Source: a virus
DNA length: 64,000 nucleotides
Reading direction: 5' to 3' (one strand)
Virus record (IMG/VR): IMGVR_UViG_3300017917_000733
Span: 32,001 to 96,000 of that record
The stretch's first letter is position 1. Every line of letters starts with the position of its first letter. The notes beneath the pieces are model-generated. The model was not told the DNA's origin. It was given only the letters and a program-made list of their open reading frames with translations, and searched no databases. Below are positions 1 to 41,136 of this stretch, one piece after another. The position numbers were made by a program, and so were the translations under genes.

Positions 1-3000
1 GCTAGAAGTATAGGAACAGATGTAGTTTCACTAACATTTGATAAACCACATAGCCTAACACAATACACACCTTTTGCTTTGATTAATTTCAATAGCAATT
101 TAGATGGTTACTATATTGCTAATAGCATCGTTGATCCTTATACTATAACTATTACTATACCTAATTTAGGAACACCTTTCTTAACAGCAATTACAGGTAA
201 TGGTATAGTTGTTACATTCCAATCAAATCGTGTAAGAAAAACCTCAGACATTACAAATCTACCATTACTAAACAATGAGTTTGTAAAAGACAAAGTTTGG
301 GTTGATACTGCATCAAACGGCTCTTGGGCTGTATACCGCAAATCACTAAACTACCAGTATAGCAAAGAATTTACAAACGATGGTTCTTTAAACTACGGTA
401 GCGCAGTAGCATACGCTGATTCATTTGGATACTTGATTGGAGATAACGAGTTAGGTGAAGTCTACAGATATGTTTACAACCCATTAAGAAATCGTTATGA
501 TTTAGTGCAAACACTAACAGGTGATAGTTCATTTGGTTCGACAATTTCATACTCAGGTAATATTGTTGCTATTTCTCAGCCTACAGGTGCTACTGCATCT
601 GATAGAAAAGTTAGAATTTATGAATATGTTTCTAACAATTTAGTTGATGAATTACAACTACTACAAACCATAGATGCACCTGATAGCTTGATTACTTCTT
701 GGGGTAGTGCATTAGCTGTATCCGGTGACCTAAATTGGTTATATGTTTCTGACACCGCAAACAATACTGTTTATGTCTATCGTAAATCATTAGTTGACGG
801 ACTATATGCATACTCTACTGTATTGCCAAGTGTATCAGGTTTAGTATCTGGTGACAATTTTGGTAGCTCACTGTCAACAAATTATTACGGCGATACTGTA
901 ACGGTTGGAGCACCAAACATTGATGTTGGCGCATTAGCTGACGTTGGATATGCTTATGCGTTTGATAGACTATATCAAAACTTTGAAGCAGCAACCACAA
1001 GTATTCCGTTTGTTCCATTAACGTTTAACCTAGCAGTTACTGTAAGTACAACGTCTAAAACTGCAACAAATACTTCTGAAGGTGGTTTTGCGGATTACAT
1101 TAAGGTTACTAGTGGATTGACAGGTGTGTCAATAGATGATCCTGTAGTGTTCTCTGGCACAATATTATCTGCTGGCGCATTACAAGAAAATAGAATCTAT
1201 TATGTTGTTGATATATCAGGCTCAAGATTCAAAGTAAGCACAACTCGCGGCGGCGCTCCTGTAACATTGTCCACTGATACTGGAACAATGACATGCACAT
1301 TCCAAACTGAACCAGTGTTTGTCAGCGTTAACGGAACTACGCTTTCTGATGACAATTATTTTGTTGTAGGATCTGTATTAAGTGTTATAAGCACAATTAA
1401 CGCAGGTGATATTATCAATGTAAGCACATCTACATTCGTGTTATCACAAACATTTGCATCAGAAGATACTACAAGGGTAGGTCCTGAATTTGGTACTAGC
1501 GTTGCAAATAATAGCTATGCTACTGAAATATTAGTTGGCGCACCTTTTGAAATACGTGAAACAACCGGTGAAGGTGCAATTTATAGGTACACTAATAGCG
1601 GTGGAAAGTATGGCTACATCATTGGTACAGGTACCGTAGCCATTTCAGCTCCAACTACTATTTTGATTAATGGTTATGCAGTGTCATTAGTTGCGGGCGA
1701 TGCTACTAGTGTCGCAAACGCTATATTGGCAGCTAACATAACAAACGTAACCGCTAGTGCTGTTGACGGCAAATTAACAATTGCATTACTTAATACATCA
1801 TTGGCAACAGTAAATGATAAGTTAAATCTTGCAGTATTGAACGATTCAGATTGGGCTGAATTAGGAATTGACCTATACACAAGAACAGAAGTCATAACAT
1901 GCCCTCATACACAAGGCGCAACTCAATTCGGTACAGTTATTAAATTCAACGAGTATCAATCATTTGTAGCGAGTGCTGTATCTGGAAACAGATATGTTGG
2001 AACAACATTTGATAGCACTGATGACGAAAACTTTGACAACGACACTATATTTGACAACAACGCTACACAATTTGTAGATGTGTTCAAGAATGCAGGTGCT
2101 GTTTACATGTTTGATTACCTAGAGAATTATAATGAAACTTTATTAAATGTTGGTAAATTTGTTTATGCACAAAGCACAAATTCATTAAACACTGAGTATG
2201 GTAATCAACCTTTATATGGTAAGGCACTTGATTTTAATAACTATACAGTTGTTGTGGGTTCTCCTAACTTTGAATTTGACGGAAACTATGGTCAGGTTAT
2301 ATCTTATGTAAACGATATAAACGAGTCTGATTGGTTTATTTACAGAAATTCATCCAGTATTGTTGATATCAACAAAATTCAAAATGCACAATTGTTTAGT
2401 GCCGAAAATAACCAAACATTGGTTAACTTAGATTATATTGATCCACTACAAGGTAAAATTCTAGGGTCTGTAAGACAAAACATTGATATAGTGTCTAATA
2501 CTGATCCTGCTAATTACAACTCACCAAACGCTACTAACAAGGGAAGCATTGTTTGGGGACCTGAACAAGTAGGTCAAGTGTGGTTCAACACAAACAACGT
2601 AAGATTTGTTAACTATCATCAAAATGATGATGTAGAATATAATAGTCAATATTGGGGACAAGTTTTCCCGGGAAGTGATGTTGCTGTATATTCTTGGATA
2701 GCAAGCAATGAATTACCTGTCAACTATCAAGGTCCGGGAACACCGCATGATTTGGATTCATATGTAGTATTCAATACTCAAGATACGCGCGGTATGTTTG
2801 TTCCAGTATATTACTATTGGGTAAGAAACACAAATATCGTATTCACAAAGAGAGGAAAAACTCTTTCTGATACTATCATTGAATCTTATATTACTAATCC
2901 AAAGAACTCTGGAATAAGTTACTTTGCTCCATTGCTACCAAATGTATTTGGATTATACAACACAGATGAGTATGTAAACAATACTGATACTGTTTTCCAT

Positions 3001-6000
3001 GTAGGATTTAGTACAGGAACTAACGATGATGTAGCTCATGCTGAATACTCATTGATTCGTGCAAACTATGCTGACGATTTCTTACCTGGATTACCAATAA
3101 ACAATAATCAATCTCCAATATCTTTATATGATAGATTGTTAGATAGTTTATCTGGTGTTGATGAGACTGGCGCAGTTGTACCGGATCCATTCTTACCTAA
3201 AGCTGTTCAAAGTGGTATCTATGCTCGCCCAAGACAAAGTTTCTTTGTAAACCGTTTTGGTGCATTAAAGAATTACTTGACTTATGCAAATGAAATAATT
3301 GCACAGTATCCTATAACCGAAACTAAGAATGAATTAACGTTCTTGTTCAAAGTAGGTGATATTAATCCTTCTACTGGATTGCCGTTCTATGATACACAGA
3401 ATTTCTGGAACTATATTAACTGGTGGGCAACTGGATATGATAACAATACTAAATCTGTCTTGCAAGTACCTTTATACGCTGATTTGTCAGCATTAAGCGT
3501 ACCAGCAGGAACTATTGTTACTGTTGCTCAAAACAATAATGGTAATTCTGAAACTTATGTATTGCAAACTACAGGTACATGGGAGCGTATTGGATTACAA
3601 AATGGTACAATAGAATTCAAATCTACATTATGGGATTACAACGAAGGTAAGTTTGGATTTGGTGGTAGCTTCTATGATACTACAGTTTACGATGAGTATC
3701 CATCAGAAGAAACAAGATATATTATTCGTGCAATAAACGAACAAATATTTACAGACGAGTTATTAATTCACAGAAACAAAGGCTTGATTCTATTGTTTGA
3801 GTACATTCAATCTGAAACAATCGAATCACAAAACTATTTACCGTGGTTAAACAAAACTTCTCTAGTAGACGTATCACATACCATTCGTGAACTACGTCCA
3901 ATTGAAGTATTCCAGTCAGATAATCAACAATTCTTGTCTAGTTATTTGAATGAAGCAAAACCATATCACGTAGTAATTAAAGATTTCTTATTCAAGTATA
4001 CAGGTACAGATGTGTTTGAAGGTGATATAACTGATTTTGATTTACCTGCGAAATTCAATTTTGAAACAAATCAATTTATTACACCTGAATTAGTTTACAG
4101 CAGCCCATCTACTGTAAACCAGTATCTACCTACTGATTCAATCTGGCAAACAACAGATTACTCTCAGTGGTTCAATAATTATGGATTGAGTATTACAGGT
4201 GTTGATAATTATCAAATTACTGTATTGTCATCTTATATTGCTCTCAACTCTCAAACTATTGTTGTAGATAACGTAAGTGGCTTTCCTGTTAATGGAGTAA
4301 TACGTATTGGTGATGAACAAATAGGATATTCTGATGTTGATAGAAGTACGAACACACTATTTGGTTTAACTAGAGGTGTTAACGAAACAGCTATCACTAC
4401 ACATATACCAGGTGAAAACATCTATATCAATTTACCAGCAGCATTGTTATTAAACGCCGGTAGAGGATATGTAAATCCACCTAGAATAACAGCCTATATT
4501 GATACTTCAATATACCCTGAACCAAGGCAAGCTGCTATTTTAGAACCTGTAATGAATTTGGATAAAATTCTAAGCATTAACGTTATTAATCCTGGTGATG
4601 GTTACGCAGTTCTTCCTGAAATTATTATTGACCCATCAATAACAGTAAGTGTTAACTCTGATGATGTAAGTACCACAGAAAACACTATTCGCTTGTTGCA
4701 ACCTTTATTACAAACAGGTGACCTTGTCCGTTATACTGTCGGAGCCGACACAACAGCAATCGGCGGATTAGATAATGGTCAATATTATTATGTAAATGTT
4801 CTAGATACAACTCCATCATTTATCATAGCATTGTATACCACATATTCAAATGCAGTAAATGACGTAGACCGTGTAACTCTTTACTCAACAGGGTCAGGTT
4901 CAAACAACAACCTAAGCGTAAGTGCTAAGGCATCTTGCGTTACTAACTCACAGCCTATCAGAGAAAATCAAATTACTTTAAGATTTGACAGAACTTCTTA
5001 TAATTCTGAAATTACTGAATGGCAATCAGGCGAATTCTATGGTTCGTTCTATGCAGGTTTGTATAATAATAGCGAAACTATTTCTAGTTCTAGCATTGGA
5101 TTGTACGCAACGCAACCACCGATAGACACTATATTAGCTAGCTTTAGAGGTGCACCATTCCAAATTTCTAACGTTACTGATGACTTATCATTAACATGGT
5201 CATCCCGTACACGTAACGTAGTTTCTACTACATCTGGAACAAATGTAATTACTATCGAGCCTTCTGAAGGCGGTGCACCTGATATGGGATCAGTTAGCCC
5301 AACTACTGGTTTCTATGTTGGAATGCCGATAAAATTTGTTGGCTCTGTAGGTACTTCTGGATTATCTGACAGTACAACCTATTATGTTAATAACATAGTT
5401 AACGGTACTGATTTTACAGTATCTGCATCTAGCACTCTAACACCTACTGTTGCTCTAAACACCACAACAATAGGAACAGCTGGCTTATTAAGCTATATTG
5501 GTCAAGTGGTAGATACAACTATTATTACTATTGATTATCCTGGTATTAGAAACGTATCTGCAACAGCAGCTACAACCAACGCACTAACTGTAGATTTAAC
5601 ATTTAGTGGTCAAGGTGGCACATCTAGATTCTACCCAGGACTACCTATATCGTTTGTAGGAAATGTATTTGGGTCAGTCATCGAAAATGAAATATATTAT
5701 GTTACTACAATCATTGACGATCAGACCTTTACTATGTCAACTAACTCTGATCCAGAGTTGATTAACGTAACAGCAACCAATTCTTCTGGTAACATTATTA
5801 CTTGTGAAAGTACTTTAGGATTAAGCGTAAACGATCCAGTCATATTCAACAATATGACTATTAGTGGGTCTACAGTAAGTAGTTTTGGTGGCATCACAAG
5901 CGGAATTATCTATTACGTAGCAACTGTATTATCACCAACCACATTTACTATTGCAACCGCACCAAACAGTTCTGCAATTAGTTTAACCACACAAGCTGCT

Positions 6001-9000
6001 GGAACTGGTACAGGCTGTATTGTCACAAATCAAAAAGATACAGCACAACTTTCAACTGCTACTGGTAATATGACGTTGAACGTTGGACTTCCATTAAGCC
6101 CAGGGCAGGTCAATGGTCAAAGGTTTACATTGTACCAGTCAGTGCCTGAATTTGGGAATACAACACCGTACACTAATATAACTGGAACAACTGGTGACTT
6201 ACTAACATATACTATAACACACACTGTCTCTGCAGGAGATGAAATCATCTTATTCACAAGCGGAGGAAGCATTTTTAGTAATATGTATGTAAACATGCCG
6301 TTCCGAGTAGCATCAAACATTGGTAACTTGACAACAGGTACAACATATTATATTACTGATTTTGGTAATGTAACAACAACTGTTACAGGAACAGCTACAC
6401 CAAGCAACATATTAACGTGTAATTCGACTGATGGTTTTTATGTTGACATGCCAGTAAAGTTCTCAGGAACATCATTGGGTGGAATAGATTTAAACACTAC
6501 ATATTTTATTGTTAATATCAATAGTTCAACTGAATTCGAAATTAGCACTACTATGGGCGGAAGTAGTTTTGCTGTATACGCTGATGCTGGAACAATGACA
6601 GTTACAGGTTCACCCTATATTACAGCGTCTACATCTATAGGTGGTTTAAATGTTACACTATCCGATGCAACAGGTAACGTGACAGCAACACAATATGTAA
6701 CAGGCACACCTATATTTGATATAGGATATACATTGGGCGGTTACTATGTTGATAACATAGTAGATGCTGGTTCAGGTTTCGCAGTAACCAATACTATTAC
6801 TATTTTGGGTAGCGATGTAGGTGGAGTAGATGGGGTCAATGATTTAACTATTATGGTCAATACAGTTGATACACAAGGTGAAATATTGACAACAATCGTA
6901 GAAGGTACACCTCCAGGCACAGTCAGTTATTATTACTTGAAAGTAATTTCTGAAACTCAATGTGAAGTTTACTATGACCCATTGATGCAAATACCTGTAC
7001 CTATCAACGACTTTGTATACGTTCAAGGTGATTACGCATTATTACCAGAACCATTCTACTTTAACCAAAGTATTGTGAAATATGGTAATAATGTTTATCA
7101 GTGTATTGTAAGTAACAACGACACTGAATTCATTCCTGGTAAATGGTTATTATTGGATAGTGGCAGTAGAGAATTAAACGCATTAGATAGAATCATCGGC
7201 TACTACAAACCAGAAAAGTCTAACGACCTAGCATGGCAAAATTATATCAACATGCCTGGCTTGGATTTAACTCAATTAGTAAGAGGTATCGTATATCCTA
7301 ACAGCACTTACTTAGGAAATGCATTTGCACCAGATGAAGAATTCCCGTTAGATGTAATCTTACAGGATCAACCTTTCACACCTAGTAATGTTGATATCAA
7401 AGCAGTAATTTACGATGGTTCTGCATATTATGCACCTGCTGTTATTATTGATGACTACTCAGCGTTATTAGTAAGTCAAGACGGTGTAACTTGGAATATT
7501 GAAAAACTTGCAGAGCAACCTATCGATTTCACGGATATGATATACGCTAACTCTAGATACTTGATAGCATCAGATAATAATGCTATATCATTGTTATTTG
7601 GATACACTGGAACTATATATTCACCGATAGTCACAGGTGCTCAATTAAATAGCATAGCGTACAATAACGGAACATTTGTCACTGCAGGCAACAAGATAAT
7701 AAGGTCTACTGATTTAGAAGTATGGACTGACGTTTATACATTTACAAATGGCTATAATAATACAATTAACAGTGTATCTTATGTTGATGTAGCATTCTTT
7801 ACTGGTTTCATTGCTGTAGGTAAAACTGTTATTCCTGGAGGCTCAGGACAATATGGAATTATTTTAACCAGTATTGACGGTGTAGTATGGACACAATCAG
7901 CGTTCACACTTGCTGATTATGGATTAAATTCTGTTGCAGCAAATTCTGACTACATTGTAGCTGTAGGTGAAAATGGATCTATCATATCATCTACTAATGC
8001 ATCTAACTGGGTACAAGAAGTTTCTGGTACTACTGAAACATTGAACAATATTGTTTGGGGATATGATAAATTTGTAGTTGTAGGTGGAAACACTACAGGT
8101 ACTATAATAACAGCACCTAGCACACCAACTACATGGACATTACAAACATCAGGTACAACTGAGTTGTTAAATGATGTTGTATATAATTCATTAGGTGATG
8201 AGTATATTGTAGTAGGTGAAAATAATACTATCCTACAAAGCTCAGATGCTATTACTTGGGTAAACCAATCTAAAATTTTACTTGAGCCAACAAAATACAA
8301 CATTCAAGGTTCACCGTTCTTATCAGGATATGGACCTGAAGAATTAGTTCCTGGAGTGGTTTCTGATAACTTGACAATGATTGTCAATACACGTCCTGGC
8401 ACAAACTGGGATGAAACTATATACCAACATGTTGGGTATAGCGTAGTTACACGTGAAATTACACAAACAGTAGGAACACAATCAGAATTTAGTTTTGATG
8501 ACATGGTTGAAGTACCTTCTCAAATTGCAGTATACCTAGTTGATTCTTCTACTGGTTTAGGAACAAGATTGTATGAAATAAATGATTACACATCTAATTG
8601 GTTAACTAAGACTATAACATTAACAACTGCACCTTCAATTGGTGACAAGATTATGATATGCGTCTACGATGTTGGTAACGGAGACCAGTTAGTTAAATCA
8701 TCTACTGATTACAATCCTATACAAGTAAATGATACAACTGGATTCTGTGAGATTCAATTAGATTGTAACTACACTGGAACTAGAAGCAGCGGTTCTGGTG
8801 TAATGAGACCAACTACTACTCCTATAAATGTAACAGTAATATCAACTAGTTCAGTAGATAACTCTATATTATGTGAGTCAGTGGATGAATTTGTAATTAA
8901 TAGCCAAATCACATTCCAGGGTTCATTATTTGGTGGGATAACTGCTGATACTCCTTATTATGTTAAAACAAGAAGCTACGCAAGTAACAGGATAACAATC

Positions 9001-11394
9001 TCTAACAGCATTATAGATGGCGTTGCAGGACCTGTATTTAACCTAACAACTGCATCTGGTCCTTCTATGACAGCAATAGTTCAAACAGGTAATGGTTTAG
9101 TTTGGACAGATCCTATCGTTTATCATAATGGATCAACATTGATATTGGGAACAACCTTGTTCTTAACAAATACTAGTGGAGATACAAATACAATCTATTG
9201 TAATACAACTGGTGGTATTGCTGCAAACGATCCAATTGTGTTTAGTGACACGATGTTTGGAGATGTAATTGTTCCGCAAACAGTTTATTACGTAAAACAA
9301 GTTATTGACGGTAATGAATTCACTATTTCTGAAACATTAGGTGGGCCAACGTTAGCATTAACTACTGCTGCAGGTGGTGCAATAGCTATAACAAATGACT
9401 ATGCATTTATTATGGCATCTAATAGTTTAACAGCAAACATGATATTTGCATCTCAGTATAATAATACTACAGATTTTATCTCTTATACTATACTTGGAGA
9501 AACTTATCCTGAACAATATCGCTTTACTATTCCGCAATTACAAACATTTGTTGCTGACGGATCTACAACAGTATTCAACTTGACAAACTATGTTTCAGGT
9601 TCCAATCCAGAAAATGCAGTTGTCGAAGTTAATGGTGTTCGTTTGTCTGACGTAGACTACGTTATAGATGGTTCATTAGATACATTGACCATGCTTTATG
9701 GAACTCCTGCATCAGACGATGTAGTAGCAATAACTAGCTATAACTCTACAACTCGTCAGTATTTCAACACACAGTACGACATTACTGGAAATATTGTTTC
9801 TAACATAGTTAATATCAGTAATGATATTAGTGTGCCTATAGCAACATCATCTTGTACAAGCACAAGTAGCGTTACAAACGAAATTACATGTGCGGATACA
9901 ACAGGTTTTGTAGTAGATCAGACAGTAGAGTTTAAAGCACCTTCTTCAACATTTGGTGGAATTGTTGCTGGTACAATTTACTATATTGAGTCTGTAACCA
10001 GTTCAACAACGTTCAAGATTTCTACCACACAAGGCGGTAGTGCTATGACATTGACTACTGATTCAGGTGTTATGGTTGCTTATGTTGGTGGACAACCTGC
10101 TGTTCGTGTAACTACTGGAATAACCAACGGATTTACTGACGGTGATTTAGTCAGACTAGATGGAGTTGTTGGACCTACACAATTAAACAACCAAGTATTC
10201 TATGCAAGAATAATAAGTTCTACCCAGTTTGATCTTTACAATCAACCTTACGATTCATCTTATAATGCTATAAATGATCCTGTTACAGGAACCACTATGA
10301 ATGCTTATATATCCGGAGGCTATGTATGGAAAGATCAGACATATATATTACAGACAACCAGAGCAACTGCTACTGATTCGTCAAACAATATAACTGTCAA
10401 TTCAGTCGATGACCTTGTGTTGAATACTCCAATCGTCTTTACTGGAACTACATTTGGTAATATTGTTGAAGGAACAGTTTACTATATTATTGACATTAAT
10501 ATTGCTGTAAACACTATAAAGATTTCTGAAACACATCAAGGCCCAGTGTTCGTCCTCTCAGTTGATACGGGTGATATGGCCGTGACTCAATGGAAGCAAG
10601 ATAATGTTGATAGACTATGGGTCACTGTCAATGGATATCGCGTTCCAAGTAGTTCGTTGTTTATTAATGATGGAGTAAACATCAGCATATTGACAACAAT
10701 CACAGCAGGTGACACTGTAACTATTACTAGCATGATTCCTAGCGAAACACCAAATCAAGTTACATATATTCAAAATGTAGGTAAGACTGGTATACCTAGT
10801 GTTTATCGCGCTGATCCTCCAACTACTACATGGTTAACACAACCGTTGTACGTTACAAACGATACAATTTATGTAAATGATGCATCTAAATTGGTGACAA
10901 CAAATACGTTTGTTGTAACGGTCGACAGTGTACCATTTTCTGTTCAGTTAGGAGATGATAAGAACTCTATCAGTAACATAACTGTATACAATAAAACTAC
11001 TTCTACTGAATTATCATCTAACGATTTCCATCTAGAAATACAGGATACAGCTCCTGTATTGGTGATAGAAAGTTCTATAAGTATTGGAAATGAAGTAGAA
11101 ATTACGGTAGTTTCTGGTAATTTACTCTATGTAAACGGAGAACAAATTAAGTTCTCATCAATAGATTTTACAACAAATTCAATATCTGGATTACAACGCG
11201 GTGCGAATGGTACCGGAGTCAATATAGAGATTTCGATATATTCACGTGTGTACGGTATATTGTCATCACATAAAATGGCTGATCCAGATTATTACGTGAC
11301 TTGGAATTCATATGTTTACAACACTGTTGAGGGTGACCCATTACAAATCAGTGATACTAACCCTGCAATATTCTTGAGAACGGACATACCTTAA
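1..11394 (+). CDS. Giant virion structural protein (baseplate/tail-associated), 5'-truncated
   Basis: Frame is open from base 1 to TAA at 11394. Contains FG-GAP-like propeller repeats (FGSTIS, FGSSLS, FGTSVA), many PxxF-G..GG..YYV..FTIS repeats and BNR-like SxDGxxW repeats. Thr/Ser/Asn-rich and followed by tail genes. Confidence 0.8.
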   Translation, partial: ARSIGTDVVSLTFDKPHSLTQYTPFALINFNSNLDGYYIANSIVDPYTITITIPNLGTPFLTAITGNGIVVTFQSNRVRKTSDITNLPLLNNEFVKDKVWVDTASNGSWAVYRKSLNYQYSKEFTNDGSLNYGSAVAYADSFGYLIGDNELGEVYRYVYNPLRNRYDLVQTLTGDSSFGSTISYSGNIVAISQPTGATASDRKVRIYEYVSNNLVDELQLLQTIDAPDSLITSWGSALAVSGDLNWLYVSDTANNTVYVYRKSLVDGLYAYSTVLPSVSGLVSGDNFGSSLSTNYYGDTVTVGAPNIDVGALADVGYAYAFDRLYQNFEAATTSIPFVPLTFNLAVTVSTTSKTATNTSEGGFADYIKVTSGLTGVSIDDPVVFSGTILSAGALQENRIYYVVDISGSRFKVSTTRGGAPVTLSTDTGTMTCTFQTEPVFVSVNGTTLSDDNYFVVGSVLSVISTINAGDIINVSTSTFVLSQTFASEDTTRVGPEFGTSVANNSYATEILVGAPFEIRETTGEGAIYRYTNSGGKYGYIIGTGTVAISAPTTILINGYAVSLVAGDATSVANAILAANITNVTASAVDGKLTIALLNTSLATVNDKLNLAVLNDSDWAELGIDLYTRTEVITCPHTQGATQFGTVIKFNEYQSFVASAVSGNRYVGTTFDSTDDENFDNDTIFDNNATQFVDVFKNAGAVYMFDYLENYNETLLNVGKFVYAQSTNSLNTEYGNQPLYGKALDFNNYTVVVGSPNFEFDGNYGQVISYVNDINESDWFIYRNSSSIVDINKIQNAQLFSAENNQTLVNLDYIDPLQGKILGSVRQNIDIVSNTDPANYNSPNATNKGSIVWGPEQVGQVWFNTNNVRFVNYHQNDDVEYNSQYWGQVFPGSDVAVYSWIASNELPVNYQGPGTPHDLDSYVVFNTQDTRGMFVPVYYYWVRNTNIVFTKRGKTLSDTIIESYITNPKNSGISYFAPLLPNVFGLYNTDEYVNNTDTVFHVGFSTGTNDDVAHAEYSLIRANYADDFLPGLPINNNQSPISLYDRLLDSLSGVDETGAVVPDPFLPKAVQSGIYARPRQSFFVNRFGALKNYLTYANEIIAQYPITETKNELTFLFKVGDINPSTGLPFYDTQNFWNYINWWATGYDNNTKSVLQVPLYADLSALSVPAGTIVTVAQNNNGNSETYVLQTTGTWERIGLQNGTIEFKSTLWDYNEGKFGFGGSFYDTTVYDEYPSEETRYIIRAINEQIFTDELLIHRNKGLILLFEYIQSETIESQNYLPWLNKTSLVDVSHTIRELRPIEVFQSDNQQFLSSYLNEAKPYHVVIKDFLFKYTGTDVFEGDITDFDLPAKFNFETNQFITPELVYSSPSTVNQYLPTDSIWQTTDYSQWFNNYGLSITGVDNYQITVLSSYIALNSQTIVVDNVSGFPVNGVIRIGDEQIGYSDVDRSTNTLFGLTRGVNETAITTHIPGENIYINLPAALLLNAGRGYVNPPRITAYIDTSIYPEPRQAAILEPVMNLDKILSINVINPGDGYAVLPEIIIDPSITVSVNSDDVSTTENTIRLLQPLLQTGDLVRYTVGADTTAIGGLDNGQYYYVNVLDTTPSFIIALYTTYSNAVNDVDRVTLYSTGSGSNNNLSVSAKASCVTNSQPIRENQITLRFDRTSYNSEITEWQSGEFYGSFYAGLYNNSETISSSSIGLYATQPPIDTILASFRGAPFQISNVTDDLSLTWSSRTRNVVSTTSGTNVITIEPSEGGAPDMGSVSPTTGFYVGMPIKFVGSVGTSGLSDSTTYYVNNIVNGTDFTVSASSTLTPTVALNTTTIGTAGLLSYIGQVVDTTIITIDYPGIRNVSATAATTNALTVDLTFSGQGGTSRFYPGLPISFVGNVFGSVIENEIYYVTTIIDDQTFTMSTNSDPELINVTATNSSGNIITCESTLGLSVNDPVIFNNMTISGSTVSSFGGITSGIIYYVATVLSPTTFTIATAPNSSAISLTTQAAGTGTGCIVTNQKDTAQLSTATGNMTLNVGLPLSPGQVNGQRFTLYQSVPEFGNTTPYTNITGTTGDLLTYTITHTVSAGDEIILFTSGGSIFSNMYVNMPFRVASNIGNLTTGTTYYITDFGNVTTTVTGTATPSNILTCNSTDGFYVDMPVKFSGTSLGGIDLNTTYFIVNINSSTEFEISTTMGGSSFAVYADAGTMTVTGSPYITASTSIGGLNVTLSDATGNVTATQYVTGTPIFDIGYTLGGYYVDNIVDAGSGFAVTNTITILGSDVGGVDGVNDLTIMVNTVDTQGEILTTIVEGTPPGTVSYYYLKVISETQCEVYYDPLMQIPVPINDFVYVQGDYALLPEPFYFNQSIVKYGNNVYQCIVSNNDTEFIPGKWLLLDSGSRELNALDRIIGYYKPEKSNDLAWQNYINMPGLDLTQLVRGIVYPNSTYLGNAFAPDEEFPLDVILQDQPFTPSNVDIKAVIYDGSAYYAPAVIIDDYSALLVSQDGVTWNIEKLAEQPIDFTDMIYANSRYLIASDNNAISLLFGYTGTIYSPIVTGAQLNSIAYNNGTFVTAGNKIIRSTDLEVWTDVYTFTNGYNNTINSVSYVDVAFFTGFIAVGKTVIPGGSGQYGIILTSIDGVVWTQSAFTLADYGLNSVAANSDYIVAVGENGSIISSTNASNWVQEVSGTTETLNNIVWGYDKFVVVGGNTTGTIITAPSTPTTWTLQTSGTTELLNDVVYNSLGDEYIVVGENNTILQSSDAITWVNQSKILLEPTKYNIQGSPFLSGYGPEELVPGVVSDNLTMIVNTRPGTNWDETIYQHVGYSVVTREITQTVGTQSEFSFDDMVEVPSQIAVYLVDSSTGLGTRLYEINDYTSNWLTKTITLTTAPSIGDKIMICVYDVGNGDQLVKSSTDYNPIQVNDTTGFCEIQLDCNYTGTRSSGSGVMRPTTTPINVTVISTSSVDNSILCESVDEFVINSQITFQGSLFGGITADTPYYVKTRSYASNRITISNSIIDGVAGPVFNLTTASGPSMTAIVQTGNGLVWTDPIVYHNGSTLILGTTLFLTNTSGDTNTIYCNTTGGIAANDPIVFSDTMFGDVIVPQTVYYVKQVIDGNEFTISETLGGPTLALTTAAGGAIAITNDYAFIMASNSLTANMIFASQYNNTTDFISYTILGETYPEQYRFTIPQLQTFVADGSTTVFNLTNYVSGSNPENAVVEVNGVRLSDVDYVIDGSLDTLTMLYGTPASDDVVAITSYNSTTRQYFNTQYDITGNIVSNIVNISNDISVPIATSSCTSTSSVTNEITCADTTGFVVDQTVEFKAPSSTFGGIVAGTIYYIESVTSSTTFKISTTQGGSAMTLTTDSGVMVAYVGGQPAVRVTTGITNGFTDGDLVRLDGVVGPTQLNNQVFYARIISSTQFDLYNQPYDSSYNAINDPVTGTTMNAYISGGYVWKDQTYILQTTRATATDSSNNITVNSVDDLVLNTPIVFTGTTFGNIVEGTVYYIIDINIAVNTIKISETHQGPVFVLSVDTGDMAVTQWKQDNVDRLWVTVNGYRVPSSSLFINDGVNISILTTITAGDTVTITSMIPSETPNQVTYIQNVGKTGIPSVYRADPPTTTWLTQPLYVTNDTIYVNDASKLVTTNTFVVTVDSVPFSVQLGDDKNSISNITVYNKTTSTELSSNDFHLEIQDTAPVLVIESSISIGNEVEITVVSGNLLYVNGEQIKFSSIDFTTNSISGLQRGANGTGVNIEISIYSRVYGILSSHKMADPDYYVTWNSYVYNTVEGDPLQISDTNPAIFLRTDIP

Positions 11395-34497: not shown

Positions 34498-34593
34498 ATG
34501 AGTTATATAGCTTGGATCATCGGTGGTTTGATTGTCGCTCTTGCCATATATTGGTTAATGGATTGGCAATCACAGCACGAAGATGGTGAATGA
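34498..34593 (+). CDS. Small membrane protein (31 aa), not in ORF track
   Basis: MSYIAWIIGGLIVALAIYWLMDWQSQHEDGE with one TM helix; ATAAATA 5 nt upstream. Confidence 0.55.
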   Translation: MSYIAWIIGGLIVALAIYWLMDWQSQHEDGE

Positions 34594-34907
34594 TTATTGT
34601 GGTATGAAGTAAAGAGAAAAGTGTTCTGGACGGCGGGGCAGTACCGCCCAGGTCCACCAAAAGAAAATTGACACGGTGTACAACGTGCATCACGGCGTGA
34701 GCATATGGTCAGGACATAGAGCCTGAATTCAGTTTTCTTTTGATGGGCCTGACATAGTTTCGACAGGGCAAAGAGTAACAGAGTGGACCACACGGTAGAT
34801 GACGACCGTAAATCGCATTAAAAACGTAAACGCAAACGACGAACAGTTCGCATTGGCAGCTTGATTAAAAGCAGCCTGGGGTAAGACAGACCTCGCAACA
34901 GAACCTC
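34594..34907 (+). ncRNA. ssrA: Circularly permuted (two-piece) tmRNA; ends approximate
   Basis: 3' acceptor CAGGTCC-A-CCA (34649-34659) precedes 5' acceptor GGGCCTG (34745-34751) and forms G3.U70. T-arm GGCGG-GGCAGTA-CCGCC. Tag ORF ANDEQFALAA* at 34832-34864. AACAGAA at 34897-34903. Confidence 0.93.
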
Positions 34908-34932
34908 AAAAAGGGCATTAATGCCCTTTTTT
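34908..34932 (+). terminator. Intrinsic terminator after tmRNA
   Basis: AAAAAGGGCAT-TA-ATGCCCTTTTTT inverted repeat with T tract. Confidence 0.85.
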
Positions 34933-34943
34933 CATGGCTACCA

Positions 34944-37373: not shown

Positions 37374-37446
37374 GCGCTGTTCTCAATGGTTGAGTAAGAG
37401 CCTCTAAAACTCTGAATAACGGGTTCGACTCCCGTACAGCGCACCA
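37374..37446 (+). tRNA. Amber suppressor tRNA (anticodon CUA) with atypical D-arm
   Basis: Acceptor GCGCTGT/ACAGCGC plus A-CCA; D-arm CTCA-ATGGT-TGAG; anticodon arm AGAGC-CTCTAAA-ACTCT; T-arm ACGGG-TTCGACT-CCCGT. Confidence 0.85.
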
Positions 37447-37461
37447 ATTATAAATAATATT

Positions 37462-37611
37462 ATGAAACTACCGTTTATTGGACTCATGGGAGTCAAAAAT
37501 GATTTAACACTTGTTACCCCTAGTGGTCGTGAGTTGTTTAGGGTGCCCCAATGGGCAGCGTGGAGAATCCAACACGTACAACACTGGATCGCACAAAAAA
37601 CTTGGAGATAA
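37462..37611 (+). CDS. Small hypothetical protein (49 aa), not in ORF track
   Basis: MKLPFIGLMGVKNDL...IAQKTWR; TATAAATA at 37449-37456. Confidence 0.65.
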   Translation: MKLPFIGLMGVKNDLTLVTPSGRELFRVPQWAAWRIQHVQHWIAQKTWR

Positions 37612-37617
37612 AACAAA

Positions 37618-38190
37618 ATGGCATAGATTGAATTTGCATGTAAAGACGTAGTGTTTCACTTTAACAAGAAACACCTAGAAGACCAAACTATACCCATGTG
37701 GGTCTTAAAATTTCATGGGGAAACATATTATGTGAATCATGTGGAATGCAATGTTCCATGGTCTACTAAAGAGACACCCGACAATTCACATACAAAAGGC
37801 AGCATCAAAGTCAAAGAGGTCTTATTAAAGATTGATGACGATAACAATGCTACATTAACCAATCTCACTATCTTTGATAAAATTCGTTTGCGTAATCAAA
37901 AATTAGGTATTACACGAATCATATTCAAACCTCACAGTGAAATGCACAAGGCAATATTAAAGAACGAGTTTAAACATAGTCCACTCAAATATGTGAATGC
38001 ACCTTGTTCAACTTCATATTTGGTTTGTGATTTATTAGATAAGGCAGAGTTTACATTTGCATCATTGAAGTATGAAGGATTTAGACAATTAATGCCCAAC
38101 GAATCATACTATCAGCAATATGATGATGTTAAAGGTGAACATTTAAAAGTGGATTACAGTCATCCAGACACACCCTACGAATATAGTTAA
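37618..38190 (+). CDS. Hypothetical protein with an in-frame TAG at codon 3 (probable read-through)
   Basis: GGAGA SD at 37604-37608. ATG GCA TAG ATT GAA TTT GCA TGT AAA GAC GTA GTG is in frame with track ORF 37651-38190. Confidence 0.7.
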
Positions 38191-38306: not shown

Positions 38307-39128
38307 ATGATGTACAATCAAAAGCTGGTGGCCAGCCTAAAAGCCAATGGTAAAATCCTTCGTGAATTCAAGGATACTGTCTACTGCCCATTCGGAGCAG
38401 AATACTCAATCTTACTCAAGAACCTAAACACAGTCCGTGCAGTTGTCAATGTTTATATTGACGGCGAGAACATTGTTCCAGGTGGTCTTGTTCTTAACGC
38501 AGGTCAAGAGGTTGACCTTGAGCGTAGCATCAAGAACGGCAATCTAACTGAAGGTAACAAACTAAAGTTCATTGAACGAACCGGAGCAGTTGAACAACAT
38601 CGTGGTATCAAACTTGAAGATGGTATTGTTCGTATTGAATACCAGTTTGAAATTGCTCGTCCAATTATCAACATCAGTGATAATATCTGGAAATCTACTC
38701 CTATTACAGGGGCGTATGATAATTACAAAACATACAATGTCAATGGTATGATGCGTAGTGTAGATTACAGCGCCGGCGAGACTATGAAAGCTACCGCGGC
38801 AAGTGCTACTAATGCCACATTACAAGCCATGAATATCAGCGCAACATCAGCACATGATGGTATGGCTACGATGGATTGGAATGATGCAGGTATTACTGTT
38901 CCGGGTAGTAAAAGTGAACAAAAGTTTCAAACAACATATTTAAACGCATTGGATCCGCAGAAGTATTCTATTGTGTTGAAGATTCTCGGTGAGACTCCTG
39001 ATAATGAACCTGTTCGCAAGCCCGTCACTACTAAGCATAAGCCTAAGTGTGTGACATGTGGCAAACAGAATAAAGCTACTGCTAAGTTCTGTACTGAATG
39101 CGGTACAGCCTTAGAAATTTTCGCTTAA
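38307..39128 (+). CDS. Hypothetical protein with C-terminal zinc ribbon
   Basis: CVTCG..FCTECG; AAGGA SD. Confidence 0.75.
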   Translation: MMYNQKLVASLKANGKILREFKDTVYCPFGAEYSILLKNLNTVRAVVNVYIDGENIVPGGLVLNAGQEVDLERSIKNGNLTEGNKLKFIERTGAVEQHRGIKLEDGIVRIEYQFEIARPIINISDNIWKSTPITGAYDNYKTYNVNGMMRSVDYSAGETMKATAASATNATLQAMNISATSAHDGMATMDWNDAGITVPGSKSEQKFQTTYLNALDPQKYSIVLKILGETPDNEPVRKPVTTKHKPKCVTCGKQNKATAKFCTECGTALEIFA

Positions 39129-40066
39129 ATCATTTTCGATGCTATGTTGGTATACAAAGGTATACCAACTAACACATTGAACGGGAATGTTATACCAAGG
39201 CTAAGACCAAAGTAGATACTAGGATTAGCCTCTGGTATAGCAAACTTCACTACCGCGGGTACAGCAATATAACTAGCACTAGCAGCTAGTACCATTAATA
39301 GTGCCGTGTTACCCAAGCTAACTCCAAACAATATACATAGACCTAAAGCCAAGATACTGTGCATTATAGGTGCTACTATAGCGTATGCTAATAACGCAGG
39401 ACTTTTGTCACGTAACTCAGGTATGCGTTTTGCAACTTGTAATCCCATGTCTAACAAGAAAAACGCTAGTAAGCCCTTGAACAAGTCACCAGTGAATGGC
39501 TTCATTACAGTAGCACCACTTTCACCCGTCAACATACCGATAGCTAAACTTGCTAACAGTAATATATGAGCACCGTCAGTAAACGATTCATGCAACACAT
39601 GTTTTATACTGACTGAATTGTTAGCTCTTGTATATGCAGCTAATGCTACTGCCATGATGATTGCAGGACTTTCCATTAACGCCATAACAGCAGACATGTA
39701 CCCGCCAAACTCTATTCCGTTGTTTGACAAATATTGTGTCGCTGTAACAAACGTGACAGCACTTACACTTCCATAAGTAGCAGCTACTGCGGCACTATCG
39801 AATCCATTTAAGAATCGTTTCAATATCACATAACCCATCGCAGGAATAGTCAATGCTAGAAATAATCCTATTCCTATAACACTACCGATTTCGTCAGTGA
39901 ACCCGCTTTTTGCTAATGCAAAGCCACCTTTAAGTCCTAATGCCATTAACAAGTACAGACTTAAAAATTTTACAATTTGGTTTGGGATTTCTAAATTGCT
40001 ACGTATAAGTCCAGCAAAAATGCCAAACACAAAGAATAATATTGCGGGGTCTAGTAAATTGTTCAT
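39125..40066 (-). CDS. SbtA-family (DUF897) sodium-dependent bicarbonate transporter-like permease
   Basis: About 10 TM helices; LDPAILFF, GLKGG, YGSVSAVTF, MESPAI, ASASYIAVP, LGITFPFN. Start placed at ATG 40066, after ATAAGTA. Confidence 0.85.
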   Translation of the reverse strand: MNNLLDPAILFFVFGIFAGLIRSNLEIPNQIVKFLSLYLLMALGLKGGFALAKSGFTDEIGSVIGIGLFLALTIPAMGYVILKRFLNGFDSAAVAATYGSVSAVTFVTATQYLSNNGIEFGGYMSAVMALMESPAIIMAVALAAYTRANNSVSIKHVLHESFTDGAHILLLASLAIGMLTGESGATVMKPFTGDLFKGLLAFFLLDMGLQVAKRIPELRDKSPALLAYAIVAPIMHSILALGLCILFGVSLGNTALLMVLAASASYIAVPAVVKFAIPEANPSIYFGLSLGITFPFNVLVGIPLYTNIASKMI

Positions 40067-40199
40067 GCAGATACTTATCGCAACTAATTTGCCCATAAAA
40101 CTTTAAAACGCAATATAGTAGCATATAATCGACTCAGTAGACCACTAAATAAAAGTATATAGTGCTCTACTGAAGTGCTCTATATCGAGAAAGAGGATA

Positions 40200-40571
40200 A
40201 TGTCAAACTTAGGTTGTTTTACTTGTTTAAACTGTGGAAAAGTTAACCCAATCAAGGGCCACTCCTATACAAACAAATACTGTAATAATAGTTGCCAGCA
40301 AGAACATCAAAGACGCCATCGTGCGTTTGAGAATGTTCAGAAATGGAAAGAATCAAAAGAGCCGCAAGCCTGGGCTAAAATTCCCGACTGGATTAGAAAA
40401 TATTTGGTTGATAACAGAGGTCACAAATGTGAATCATGTAATAATGAAACACATAATGGGAAAGAGATTCCACTAGATGTAACTTATCGTGATGGTGATA
40501 GTTACAATACAAAGGAAGACAACTTAATGTTGATATGCCCCAATTGTAGGGCACAAAGTAAAATTCATTAA
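40200..40571 (+). CDS. HNH endonuclease-like zinc-binding protein, possibly degenerate
   Basis: CLNC, YCNNSC, CESC, DGD..N...NLMLICPNC; the expected catalytic His appears replaced (LDVTY). Confidence 0.65.
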   Translation: MSNLGCFTCLNCGKVNPIKGHSYTNKYCNNSCQQEHQRRHRAFENVQKWKESKEPQAWAKIPDWIRKYLVDNRGHKCESCNNETHNGKEIPLDVTYRDGDSYNTKEDNLMLICPNCRAQSKIH

Positions 40572-40590: not shown

Positions 40591-41136
40591 ATGAAAACAA
40601 TCGGCGATAAAATTACAAGTTTTGCAGTTACAGGCGTTAAGCCAGGTGCACTTACACCGGAAGGCGCGTTTGAAACTATTACTGACAAAAGTTTCGAAGG
40701 AAAATGGAAAGTTATTGTTTACTATCCTAAGGACTTCACTTTCGTATGTCCTACTGAGATTGTTGCTTATGACAAGCTCAATGGCGACTTTAGTGACCGT
40801 GATGCAGTTCTATTAATCGGTTCTACAGATAACGAATTCTGTAAGCTAGCATGGCGTAATGCACACGAAGACCTAAAGAAAACAAATTCTTGGTCATTCG
40901 CTGATGTTGCCCGTGACGAGAACAGTTTAGCACAACAATTAGGTATCTTCTACGGTCCAGCAGGCGCCGCATTACGTGCTACATTCATTGTTGACCCTGA
41001 TAACGTTATTCAGCACGTTACAGTTAACAACTTGGACGTTGGTCGTAATCCAGATGAAACATTGCGTATTCTTGACGCACTACAGACTGGCGAACTATGC
41101 CCATGCTCACGTCCTATCGGTGGTGAGACACTATAA
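40591..41136 (+). CDS. ahpC: Peroxiredoxin AhpC
   Basis: YPKDFTFVCPTE, RATFIVDP, GRN, GELCPC. Confidence 0.95.
   Translation: MKTIGDKITSFAVTGVKPGALTPEGAFETITDKSFEGKWKVIVYYPKDFTFVCPTEIVAYDKLNGDFSDRDAVLLIGSTDNEFCKLAWRNAHEDLKKTNSWSFADVARDENSLAQQLGIFYGPAGAALRATFIVDPDNVIQHVTVNNLDVGRNPDETLRILDALQTGELCPCSRPIGGETL

Follow-up and report, generated by a model that had tools for sequence, protein, structure and literature searches.

The window analysed here is a stretch of 64,000 nucleotides (nt) from a virus (positions 32,001 to 96,000 of record IMGVR_UViG_3300017917_000733), and this work concerns a small module within it: a tRNA gene with the anticodon CUA (tRNA-CUA) and, further along the same strand, a protein gene that carries an in-frame amber codon (TAG) at its third position. 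The source is a phage record of 121,144 bases with a CheckV completeness of 24% and a G+C content of 37.7%, and the tRNA-CUA of the window is the sole tRNA that ARAGORN finds on these 121 kb. The tRNA gene, which is of the amber-suppressor type, occupies positions 37374-37446 (ARAGORN and Rfam RF00005) and is followed on its 3' side by the sequence TATAAATA at 37449-37456 and by a 49-codon open reading frame (ORF) at 37462-37611, taken from the list of ORFs under translation table 11. A Shine-Dalgarno (SD) sequence GGAGA at 37604-37608 stands 9 nt ahead of an ATG at 37618, which is 171 nt from the 3' end of the tRNA. From this ATG the sequence reads ATG GCA TAG ATT GAA TTT and the frame is then open to a TAA at 38188-38190, which makes a gene of 190 codons (37618-38190) for a two-domain protein. 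All of these features are on the plus strand. We refer to the leader ATG-GCA with the following TAG (37624-37626; together 37618-37626) as the gate, and to the gene as the gated gene. The table 11 ORF starts at a GTG (37651) and has 179 amino acids. The preliminary description of this DNA, made from the sequence alone, had listed the CUA tRNA, the 49-codon ORF, the GGAGA, the ATG-GCA-TAG and the 190-codon frame, and each of them lies exactly as described according to ARAGORN, Rfam and the sequence itself.

The amber codon, the start of the gene and the genetic code

Homologous loci were chosen by peptide patterns inside the protein, so that the TAG played no part in their choice. They comprise 60 viral loci, 80 metagenome loci, one locus from a bacterial species collection and the window, or 142 in total. 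Since the viral and metagenome sets partly overlap, the count of distinct sequences (103) is the number that matters, and many of the loci are fragments. An SD and ATG, 1-8 further codons and then TAG are kept in 138 of the 142 loci, which represent the 103 distinct sequences; the TAG is present in 58/60 viral loci, 78/80 metagenome loci, the one locus of the genome collection and the window. Among the other four, two viral loci (L058 and L059) have no TAG and two metagenome loci are cut by the contig end. The single match in the bacterial species collection is a 7.6-kb contig of a metagenome-assembled genome, which provides no host information. The stop codon is TAG in 103/103 distinct sequences, never TAA or TGA, the base on its 3' side is A in all of them, and an SD-like motif is found at -16 to -4 of the ATG, again without exception (103/103). 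The leader is variable both in length (2 codons in 80 of the distinct sequences, 3 in 13, 4 in 9 and 9 in one) and in sequence, with A, K or S at codon 2. In the viral loci the TAG is located directly ahead of IE[FY]ACKD[VI]VFHFNK. Relatives with as little as about 53% protein identity still have this single site, with no build-up of additional in-frame TAGs; the suggestion in the preliminary description that the codon might be an early step towards recoding fits poorly with such a pattern. An A after TAG fits selection for a suppression-favouring context.

The possibility of a sequence error at the TAG, raised with the original description, was addressed with an independent DNA run from another study (X2, record 10), in which a contig covering 37300-37677 shows 0 differences from the window and thus carries the identical leader and TAG. 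The amber codon is thereby confirmed as a real feature and no error.

The codons that follow the TAG behave as coding sequence. In the nine codons after it (codons 4-12), which occur in 36 distinct versions, the Ile, Glu, Cys and last Val are kept via synonymous codons (TGT/TGC for Cys; GTG/GTC/GTT/GTA for Val), and the pairwise codon differences after the TAG are 1494 synonymous vs 1236 non-synonymous. In 21 of the 103 distinct sequences, GTC, GTT or GTA takes the place of the window's GTG, and because these Val codons are not starts, the GTG at 37651 is not a conserved start. The AlphaFold2 model built from 60 aligned relatives has a predicted local distance difference test score (pLDDT) of 90.3, and its first beta strand includes residues 4-15; the N-terminal domain modelled alone (pLDDT 95.2) has the same first strand. 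Distant relatives that are ungated begin M-[IVL]-E-[IL]-A-C-K, and the TAG therefore stands at the site of their start codon. Judged from these comparisons and models, the stretch from the TAG to the annotated GTG is coding and the real start is the ATG at 37618. The extension that had been anticipated for the homologues is found, as they reach M-x-[TAG]-IE[FY]ACKD. The gate would then amount to an ATG plus 1-8 codons plus TAG set ahead of the first conserved residue of the protein.

The same protein has 1642 relatives in the databases, and as a consequence of the unconserved GTG it is held there in forms of 164, 179 and about 190 amino acids. All of the forms of about 190 amino acids, which have a Q at the site, come from contigs under 5.4 kb. 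In 2 of 49 such entries (P0010 and P0060) the Q could be traced to a TAG read by another code, as they match letter for letter only with TAG as Q, and the DNA of the remaining 47 entries is untraced. CAG is found at the site in 0/103 distinct DNA sequences. The database Q was rejected as evidence for insertion of Gln, being a translated TAG in the two traced entries. Gene callers misannotate the gated gene everywhere: it is cut to 179 or 164 amino acids, given a Q at the TAG or, in a cultured phage, left unannotated.

We also examined the genetic code of the remaining genome. Greedy picking yielded 127 ORFs of at least 60 amino acids on the contig, of which 74 end in TAA, 49 in TGA and 4 in TAG; a TAG ends 1/97 ORFs of at least 100 amino acids and 0/77 of at least 150. 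The ORF coverage of the contig is 0.957 under table 11 vs 0.941 with TAG as sense. A scan of the 121-kb contig for an SD, ATG, 1-9 codons, TAG and at least 60 open codons returned 4 pattern matches; the gated gene is the only gene-like one, and no other in-frame TAG on the contig combines an SD and an ATG with a long, clean frame after the stop. Of the 326 ORFs of at least 100 amino acids in G007, a complete relative of 364 kb, 16 end in TAG and have short read-through tails, and the single gate found there is the homologue of the gated gene. The contig and G007 otherwise use the standard code and have one gate each, in agreement with the original statement that the segment is not wholesale recoded. 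Avoidance of TAG as an adaptation to the suppressor was considered and dropped, the 16/326 of G007 being at what we take to be an ordinary level. Outside the window, the contig's only ORF of at least 100 amino acids that ends in TAG (G000:C1:103526-104155) ends with TAG-CAT-AAA-TAG and is in frame with the next ORF, so that a suppressor tRNA would fuse the two.

The tRNA-CUA and its linkage to the gated gene

The window tRNA is 73 nt long and scores 40.4 bits with the Rfam tRNA model (cut-off 29). It has the anticodon loop CUCUAAA, A73, an encoded CCA and an acceptor stem with G1-C72, C2-G71 and G3-C70, and its D arm is unusually short, with a 1-nt spacer, a 4-bp stem and a 5-nt loop. The tRNA-CUA family comprises 34 distinct genes with encoded CCA, for which RNAalifold gives 18 pairs, 15 of them with compensatory changes on both sides. 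The anticodon loop is C/U-U-CUA-A-A in 34/34, a 7-nt loop with U33 and a purine at 37. A two-base spacer is usual (32/34), the 1-nt spacer being restricted to the window and L017, and most members have a longer D arm; L079, which is outside the 34-sequence alignment, has the same short D arm as the window tRNA. Identity to 44 other phage tRNAs reaches at most 77% and is spread over several isoacceptors, and this comparison names neither a parent isoacceptor nor an amino acid. The inserted residue would presumably be Lys or Gln, the likeliest residues in the light of E. coli amber suppressor work.

A tRNA-CUA is encoded on the same record and strand in 56 of the 58 TAG-bearing viral records. 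ARAGORN places it on the gene's strand and at most 3 kb upstream in 39/58 loci. For 17 of the other 19, a covariance model of the family locates it at another place on the record; three of these copies have an odd D or T arm and are overlooked by ARAGORN. The two records in which it was not found are an 11.5-kb fragment and a contig beginning 57 nt before the gene. Of the 56 records, 55 have the tRNA-CUA upstream of the gene; in the other it is 8.5 kb downstream. In the metagenome loci, many of which are on short contigs, ARAGORN detects a tRNA-CUA within 1.5-kb flanks in 24/80. G007 carries an array of 28 tRNAs at 232-238 kb, and its tRNA-CUA lies 100 kb away from the array and 4.7 kb upstream of the gated gene. 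The co-occurrence of TAG and tRNA across related genomes, named at the outset as a check on the idea, is thus observed. The converse fails, as a tRNA-CUA is also found where the gene has no TAG (L058/L059 and phage Phosso): a gate implies a tRNA-CUA, and a tRNA-CUA does not imply a gate.

The distance from the tRNA end to the ATG is 21 nt in L002 and 28-36 nt in L047, L048, L004 and L031. A separate promoter would not fit into the gaps of 21-36 nt in these five loci, and the tRNA and the mRNA are therefore probably derived from one transcript. Metatranscriptome libraries from two studies each contain one contig that lies on both the tRNA and the gene, which are separated in it by 71 letters of different sequence; these are from relatives without the 49-codon ORF. 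A third RNA library contains a 350-nt contig that spans 37519-37817 and hence the TAG, and among the differences listed for the RNA contigs none is at 37624-37626. The RNA runs (X15-X17) cover just small parts of the stretch, and this is weak evidence, as such contigs are no proof that one transcript exists and DNA may be present in RNA libraries. The sequence TATAAATA, which the preliminary description had included in the arrangement, could not be upheld as a part of it: 11 of 98 distinct upstream regions contain it, and the contig shows no enrichment, its plus strand having 5 copies vs about 12 expected from base composition. It was accordingly rejected as a T4-type late promoter.

The gated protein, its relatives and its neighbours

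The gated protein consists of an N-terminal all-beta domain (about residues 4-90; 37627-37887, plus strand), delimited by the AlphaFold2 model and by domain architectures, and a C-terminal beta-alpha-beta-beta-alpha-beta domain (about residues 97-175; 37906-38142, plus strand), which VIA-align assigns to the generic ACT/RRM-like ferredoxin type. In the wide VIA-align search the best match of the C-terminal domain is 8y1j_B (Z 5.6, root-mean-square deviation 2.7, 71 residues aligned), too weak to indicate a function, and the best match of the N-terminal domain alone has a Z of 3.8, with no clear fold match. OB-fold-like and ADP-ribosyltransferase-like rows for the N-terminal domain are far below a meaningful score and nothing was drawn from them. 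There is no Pfam match for the 179-amino-acid form or the 90-amino-acid N-terminal part and no PHROG match for the protein. A profile search of the PDB sequences gave no match (best E 0.14), Foldseek with the protein model gave 0 matches in the PDB at E <= 0.001, and the ESM Atlas gave no usable match with a natural homologue.

The N-terminal domain is the widespread and mobile unit of the family. It may stand alone, follow a helical domain of about 100 amino acids, precede the C-terminal domain or, in metagenomes, be fused directly to a PTH2 (peptidyl-tRNA hydrolase) domain. The fusion is seen in protein P0178 (PF01981, 32 bits vs a cut-off of 23), whose N-terminal part is shared by three more cluster representatives; among the matches listed with P0178, PF01981 is detected in 6/10 proteins, P0178 included. 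The gated protein itself is not a PF01981 member, PTH2 being a separate domain in relatives only. In phages Phosso (L093:2046-3225) and Atu_ph07 (L094:2049-3228), a PTH2 gene is followed by another gene and then by a gene for the helical domain plus N-terminal domain, with 4-nt overlaps. This run of genes sits amid phosphatase genes in both phages and an RNA ligase gene in Atu_ph07. The PTH2 fusion and neighbourhood, as read from sequence, suggest that the protein may have a role at tRNA, peptidyl-tRNA or the ribosome. When five records were searched, the PTH2 domain (PF01981) was found in 1/5 and the RF-1 domain (PF00472) in 1/5, and as the window record is 24% complete, the absence of either domain there is uninformative. 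The RF-1-domain frame is that of G007 (G007:C1:231273-231590, minus strand; PF00472, 70.9 bits). It lies beside the tRNA array and may be ArfB-like, its 189 amino acids being too few for a complete release factor.

A few relatives are instructive. In the cultured Rhizobium phage RHph_I1_18 (MN988519.1), the gated gene (L092 3977-4225) is unannotated and encodes only the N-terminal domain. It reads SD-ATG AGT GAG TTC ATG TAG AAC, i.e., MSEFM-TAG-NESCREVIFHFNK, and its stop is 12 nt before an annotated 'tRNA-Pyl(cta)', which is a tRNA-CUA. L058 and L059, the only two loci with a homologue lacking the TAG, have two tandem tRNA-CUAs, then 19 nt, and then a different gene of 164 codons (L058:2496-2990, plus strand) with TAG at codon 5; the homologue comes next. 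No relatives of the 164-codon gene were found beyond these two records. The gate may be portable between genes. In phage Phosso the tRNA-CUA is far from the ungated homologue. In Agrobacterium phage Atu_ph07 the best match to the tRNA model has the anticodon UCA, and two of its four lower-scoring matches were checked, neither being CUA. The UCA tRNA of this phage (L118:1501-1575) is opal-suppressor-like and is labelled tRNA-SeC by ARAGORN.

Turning to the neighbourhood, the 49-codon ORF has homologues in 7/60 viral loci (tblastn, 62-87% identity), always ending just ahead of the ATG of the gated gene, and has no Pfam or PHROG match. Its TAA (37609-37611) is directly 3' of the GGAGA of the gated gene, and translational coupling is possible. 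Downstream of the gated gene, positions 38307-39128 (plus strand) encode a protein of 273 amino acids with a C-terminal zinc ribbon (Pfam PF13240, E 6.5e-07); it is near the module in 36/60 viral loci by tblastn, either downstream as in the window or between the tRNA and the gene. It is followed by an SbtA-type Na+/bicarbonate transporter family gene (39125-40096, minus strand; PF05982, E 1.4e-109), which is unusual in a phage, an HNH endonuclease gene with PHROG matches (40200-40571, plus strand), and a gene at 40591-41136 (plus strand) whose product is peroxiredoxin-like as judged by eye and which is near the module in 28/60 loci. Farther away, a giant open frame (1-11394, plus strand; at least 3797 codons) runs off the 5' end of the window. 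A two-piece (permuted) transfer-messenger RNA (tmRNA) of the beta-proteobacterial type, with the tag ANDEQFALAA, is located at 34544-34934 (plus strand), 2.5 kb upstream of the tRNA-CUA. G007 also has a two-piece tmRNA, with the tag ANDNVYALAA, about 41 kb from its tRNA-CUA. The two-piece tmRNA could be linked to non-stop ribosomes that arise from read-through.

Proposed suppression-dependent translation and competing explanations

We propose, with a probability of roughly 0.78, that the gated protein is made by suppression-dependent translation through the UAG by means of the phage tRNA-CUA, in a large aquatic phage of standard code. The ribosome would start at the ATG at 37618 behind a good SD and meet the UAG after one further codon, where the host release factor 1 (RF1) would release a dipeptide unless the tRNA-CUA decodes the codon. 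If the tRNA-CUA is charged by a host synthetase, translation would continue into the conserved protein. A failed attempt would waste two residues and leave no truncated protein. As the amber codon is in the variable leader outside the fold, at the start site of ungated relatives, any inserted residue should be tolerated. The output would follow the level of the mRNA times the level of the mature charged suppressor, which is a coherent feed-forward (AND) gate: there would be no leak early, and the yield would increase with the build-up of the stable tRNA and its growing advantage over RF1. This feed-forward purpose is less certain than suppression-dependent translation as such. The comparative sequence evidence supports the view of the preliminary description that a single amber codon makes the gene depend on the adjacent phage tRNA; the arrangement might serve as a timing gate or as a selfish module.

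Several points weigh against this interpretation. Charging of the tRNA-CUA and suppression of UAG by it are predictions from its sequence, and the window tRNA has a non-canonical D arm, a C31-A39 mismatch and an Rfam score of just 40.4 bits. Because the tRNA-CUA is also present where the homologue is ungated (Phosso, L058/L059), it may have other or even main targets. A consensus scan revealed no sigma-70-type promoter or terminator that would define the transcript, and if the tRNA and the mRNA are co-transcribed, the gate cannot be a simple early/late transcriptional timer. The ORF statistics come from crude greedy ORF picking and not from a gene caller, and the rarity of TAG as a terminator, being no greater than in many ordinary genomes, adds little. 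Finally, the codon after the TAG is ATT in 96/103 distinct sequences, which is compatible with re-initiation at AUU.

Re-initiation is indeed one of the alternatives to be weighed: ATG-GCA-TAG would be a two-codon upstream ORF, the ribosome would restart at AUU or GUG, and the tRNA-CUA would serve other purposes. AUU can be a weak start codon, as in infC, and the two-codon leader of 80/103 distinct sequences, the ATT behind it and the presence of tRNA-CUA in phages with an ungated homologue are all consistent with this. A plain upstream ORF would be expected to stop at TAA or TGA, however, as 123 of the 127 contig ORFs do, yet the stop is always TAG. In addition, no start-like codon follows the TAG in L056 (AAA-GTT) or in RHph_I1_18 (AAC), the GTG is replaced by Val codons that are not starts in 21/103, and the tRNA-CUA is tightly linked on the same strand in 56/58, which together make re-initiation improbable. 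A leaky UAG, read by near-cognate host tRNAs or terminated slowly at the dipeptidyl-tRNA stage, might also set a low level of the protein, with the tRNA being coincidental or acting on host genes. The invariant A after TAG does suggest selection on context, and 2/58 TAG-bearing records show no tRNA-CUA, but both of these are truncated as described above (the 11.5-kb fragment and the contig with just 57 nt ahead of the gene). In the remaining 56 the linkage, with a tRNA set apart from the array, is difficult to attribute to coincidence, and a low level would be obtained more cheaply with a weak SD, whereas an SD-like motif is kept in 103/103. Read-through that needs no phage tRNA is thus quite improbable in our view.

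It is very improbable that TAG is reassigned in the whole genome (code 15) and the gene is merely one of many recoded. The suppressor tRNA, the few TAG ends (4/127 ORFs and none of the 77 of at least 150 amino acids) and the database Q would be expected from such a code, but coverage falls from 0.957 to 0.941 with TAG as sense, one convincing in-frame TAG is found on the 121 kb and one on the 364-kb G007, TAG ends 16/326 of the longer G007 ORFs with short tails, and the Q goes back to TAG in 2/49 entries, with every Q-form on a contig shorter than 5.4 kb. An error of sequencing or assembly, or a pseudogene decaying through a nonsense mutation, deserves almost no weight: a single early stop has the look of a fresh nonsense mutation when one genome is considered, but that explanation is refuted by its presence in 103 distinct sequences, its unchanged state in the independent DNA run and the purifying selection on both sides of the TAG. 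The chance that the UAG specifies pyrrolysine or another special residue is likewise negligible. A tRNA-Pyl has a 1-nt spacer, a 5-nt D loop, a 6-bp anticodon stem and a 3-nt variable loop, and lacks G18G19 and T-psi-C. The window tRNA shares the spacer and the D loop length and is labelled 'tRNA-Pyl' by ARAGORN, but that label reflects the CUA anticodon only, and the tRNA has the T loop TTCGA, a D loop with GG, a variable region of 5 nt and an anticodon stem of 5 bp. Its short D arm is rare in the family, where 32/34 have a two-base spacer, so the tRNA-Pyl-like look is incidental; the site is also in a leader that is not conserved, and a residue of special chemistry would not be expected there.

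A further idea, which we regard as unlikely, is that the tRNA-CUA is first of all a weapon that makes host ribosomes run through the UAG terminators of host genes. The phage would have its own genes end largely in TAA or TGA, and a rescue kit would be at hand (the tmRNA of the window and of G007, the RF-1-domain ORF of G007, and PTH2 in relatives), with the gated gene as a sensor of the take-over and the gate itself portable. Were this true, the gated protein would be made only once suppression beats RF1, and a translation-remodelling effector would be coupled to the state of termination.

Suppression-dependent translation of the gated gene can be compared with known systems. The prfB gene for RF2 is autoregulated by an early in-frame UGA, from which the ribosome escapes by +1 frameshifting, and thereby senses its own product. 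The gate resembles it in the early in-frame stop and in the use of termination vs alternative decoding as a sensor; it differs in that a dedicated tRNA would provide the escape and in that nothing links the gated protein to RF1. The bar minigenes of phage lambda are two-codon ORFs ending in TAA or TGA that cause peptidyl-tRNA drop-off and are toxic in Pth-deficient hosts. They share with the gate the ATG-NNN-stop behind an SD and a link to peptidyl-tRNA hydrolase (here the PTH2 fusion and adjacency in relatives), but bar has no in-frame protein downstream, whereas the gate has an invariant TAG and a conserved protein in frame behind it.

According to a preprint on recoded phages by Borges et al., those in which TAG is Gln (code 15), among them crAss-like, Lak and other gut phages, carry their own suppressor tRNAs, an in-frame TAG is proposed to make certain genes wait for phage-made translation factors, and standard-code relatives with an acquired suppressor tRNA are noted (10.1101/2021.08.26.457843). 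Phage suppressor tRNAs and the TAG recoding of many late genes are thus established (10.1101/2021.08.26.457843; PMC13037316). The present phages resemble these code-15 phages in having a phage-encoded tRNA-CUA in a standard-code host. As described in the same sources, many TAGs are spread over late, structural and lysis genes of code-15 phages and coding density rises on recoding, whereas the present genomes each have a single such codon in a single gene, its position in a dispensable leader being fixed over 103 distinct sequences, and TAG continues to terminate other genes. The recoding surveys, as outlined there, detect recoding via coding density, which a single codon cannot move. An engineered counterpart is the synthetic 'leak dampener' of Ho et al. 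(NAR 2021), in which one input drives a suppressor tRNA and a nonsense-bearing target, removing leak and sharpening induction (PMC7969014). In both cases a nonsense codon and the matching suppressor tRNA are in the same unit and the output needs, or would need, both. As presented there, the leak dampener was engineered in E. coli, whereas the gate is natural, and its co-transcription is inferred from the spacing and from the weak RNA-library contigs. In the literature searched, which lay outside subscription journals and supplements, we found no conserved amber gate of one codon among phages of standard code; such phages might be listed in those journals or supplements, for instance in Table S2 of the preprint by Borges et al.

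If the proposed reading is true, the module would be a natural single-codon translational AND gate of the same design as the synthetic leak dampener. A large and widespread group of standard-code phages, to judge from the 1642 database relatives of the protein, would dedicate a tRNA to one codon of one gene and keep it across deep divergence. This would provide a clean system for the question of why phages carry suppressor tRNAs, and as RHph_I1_18 is in culture, the idea is directly testable.

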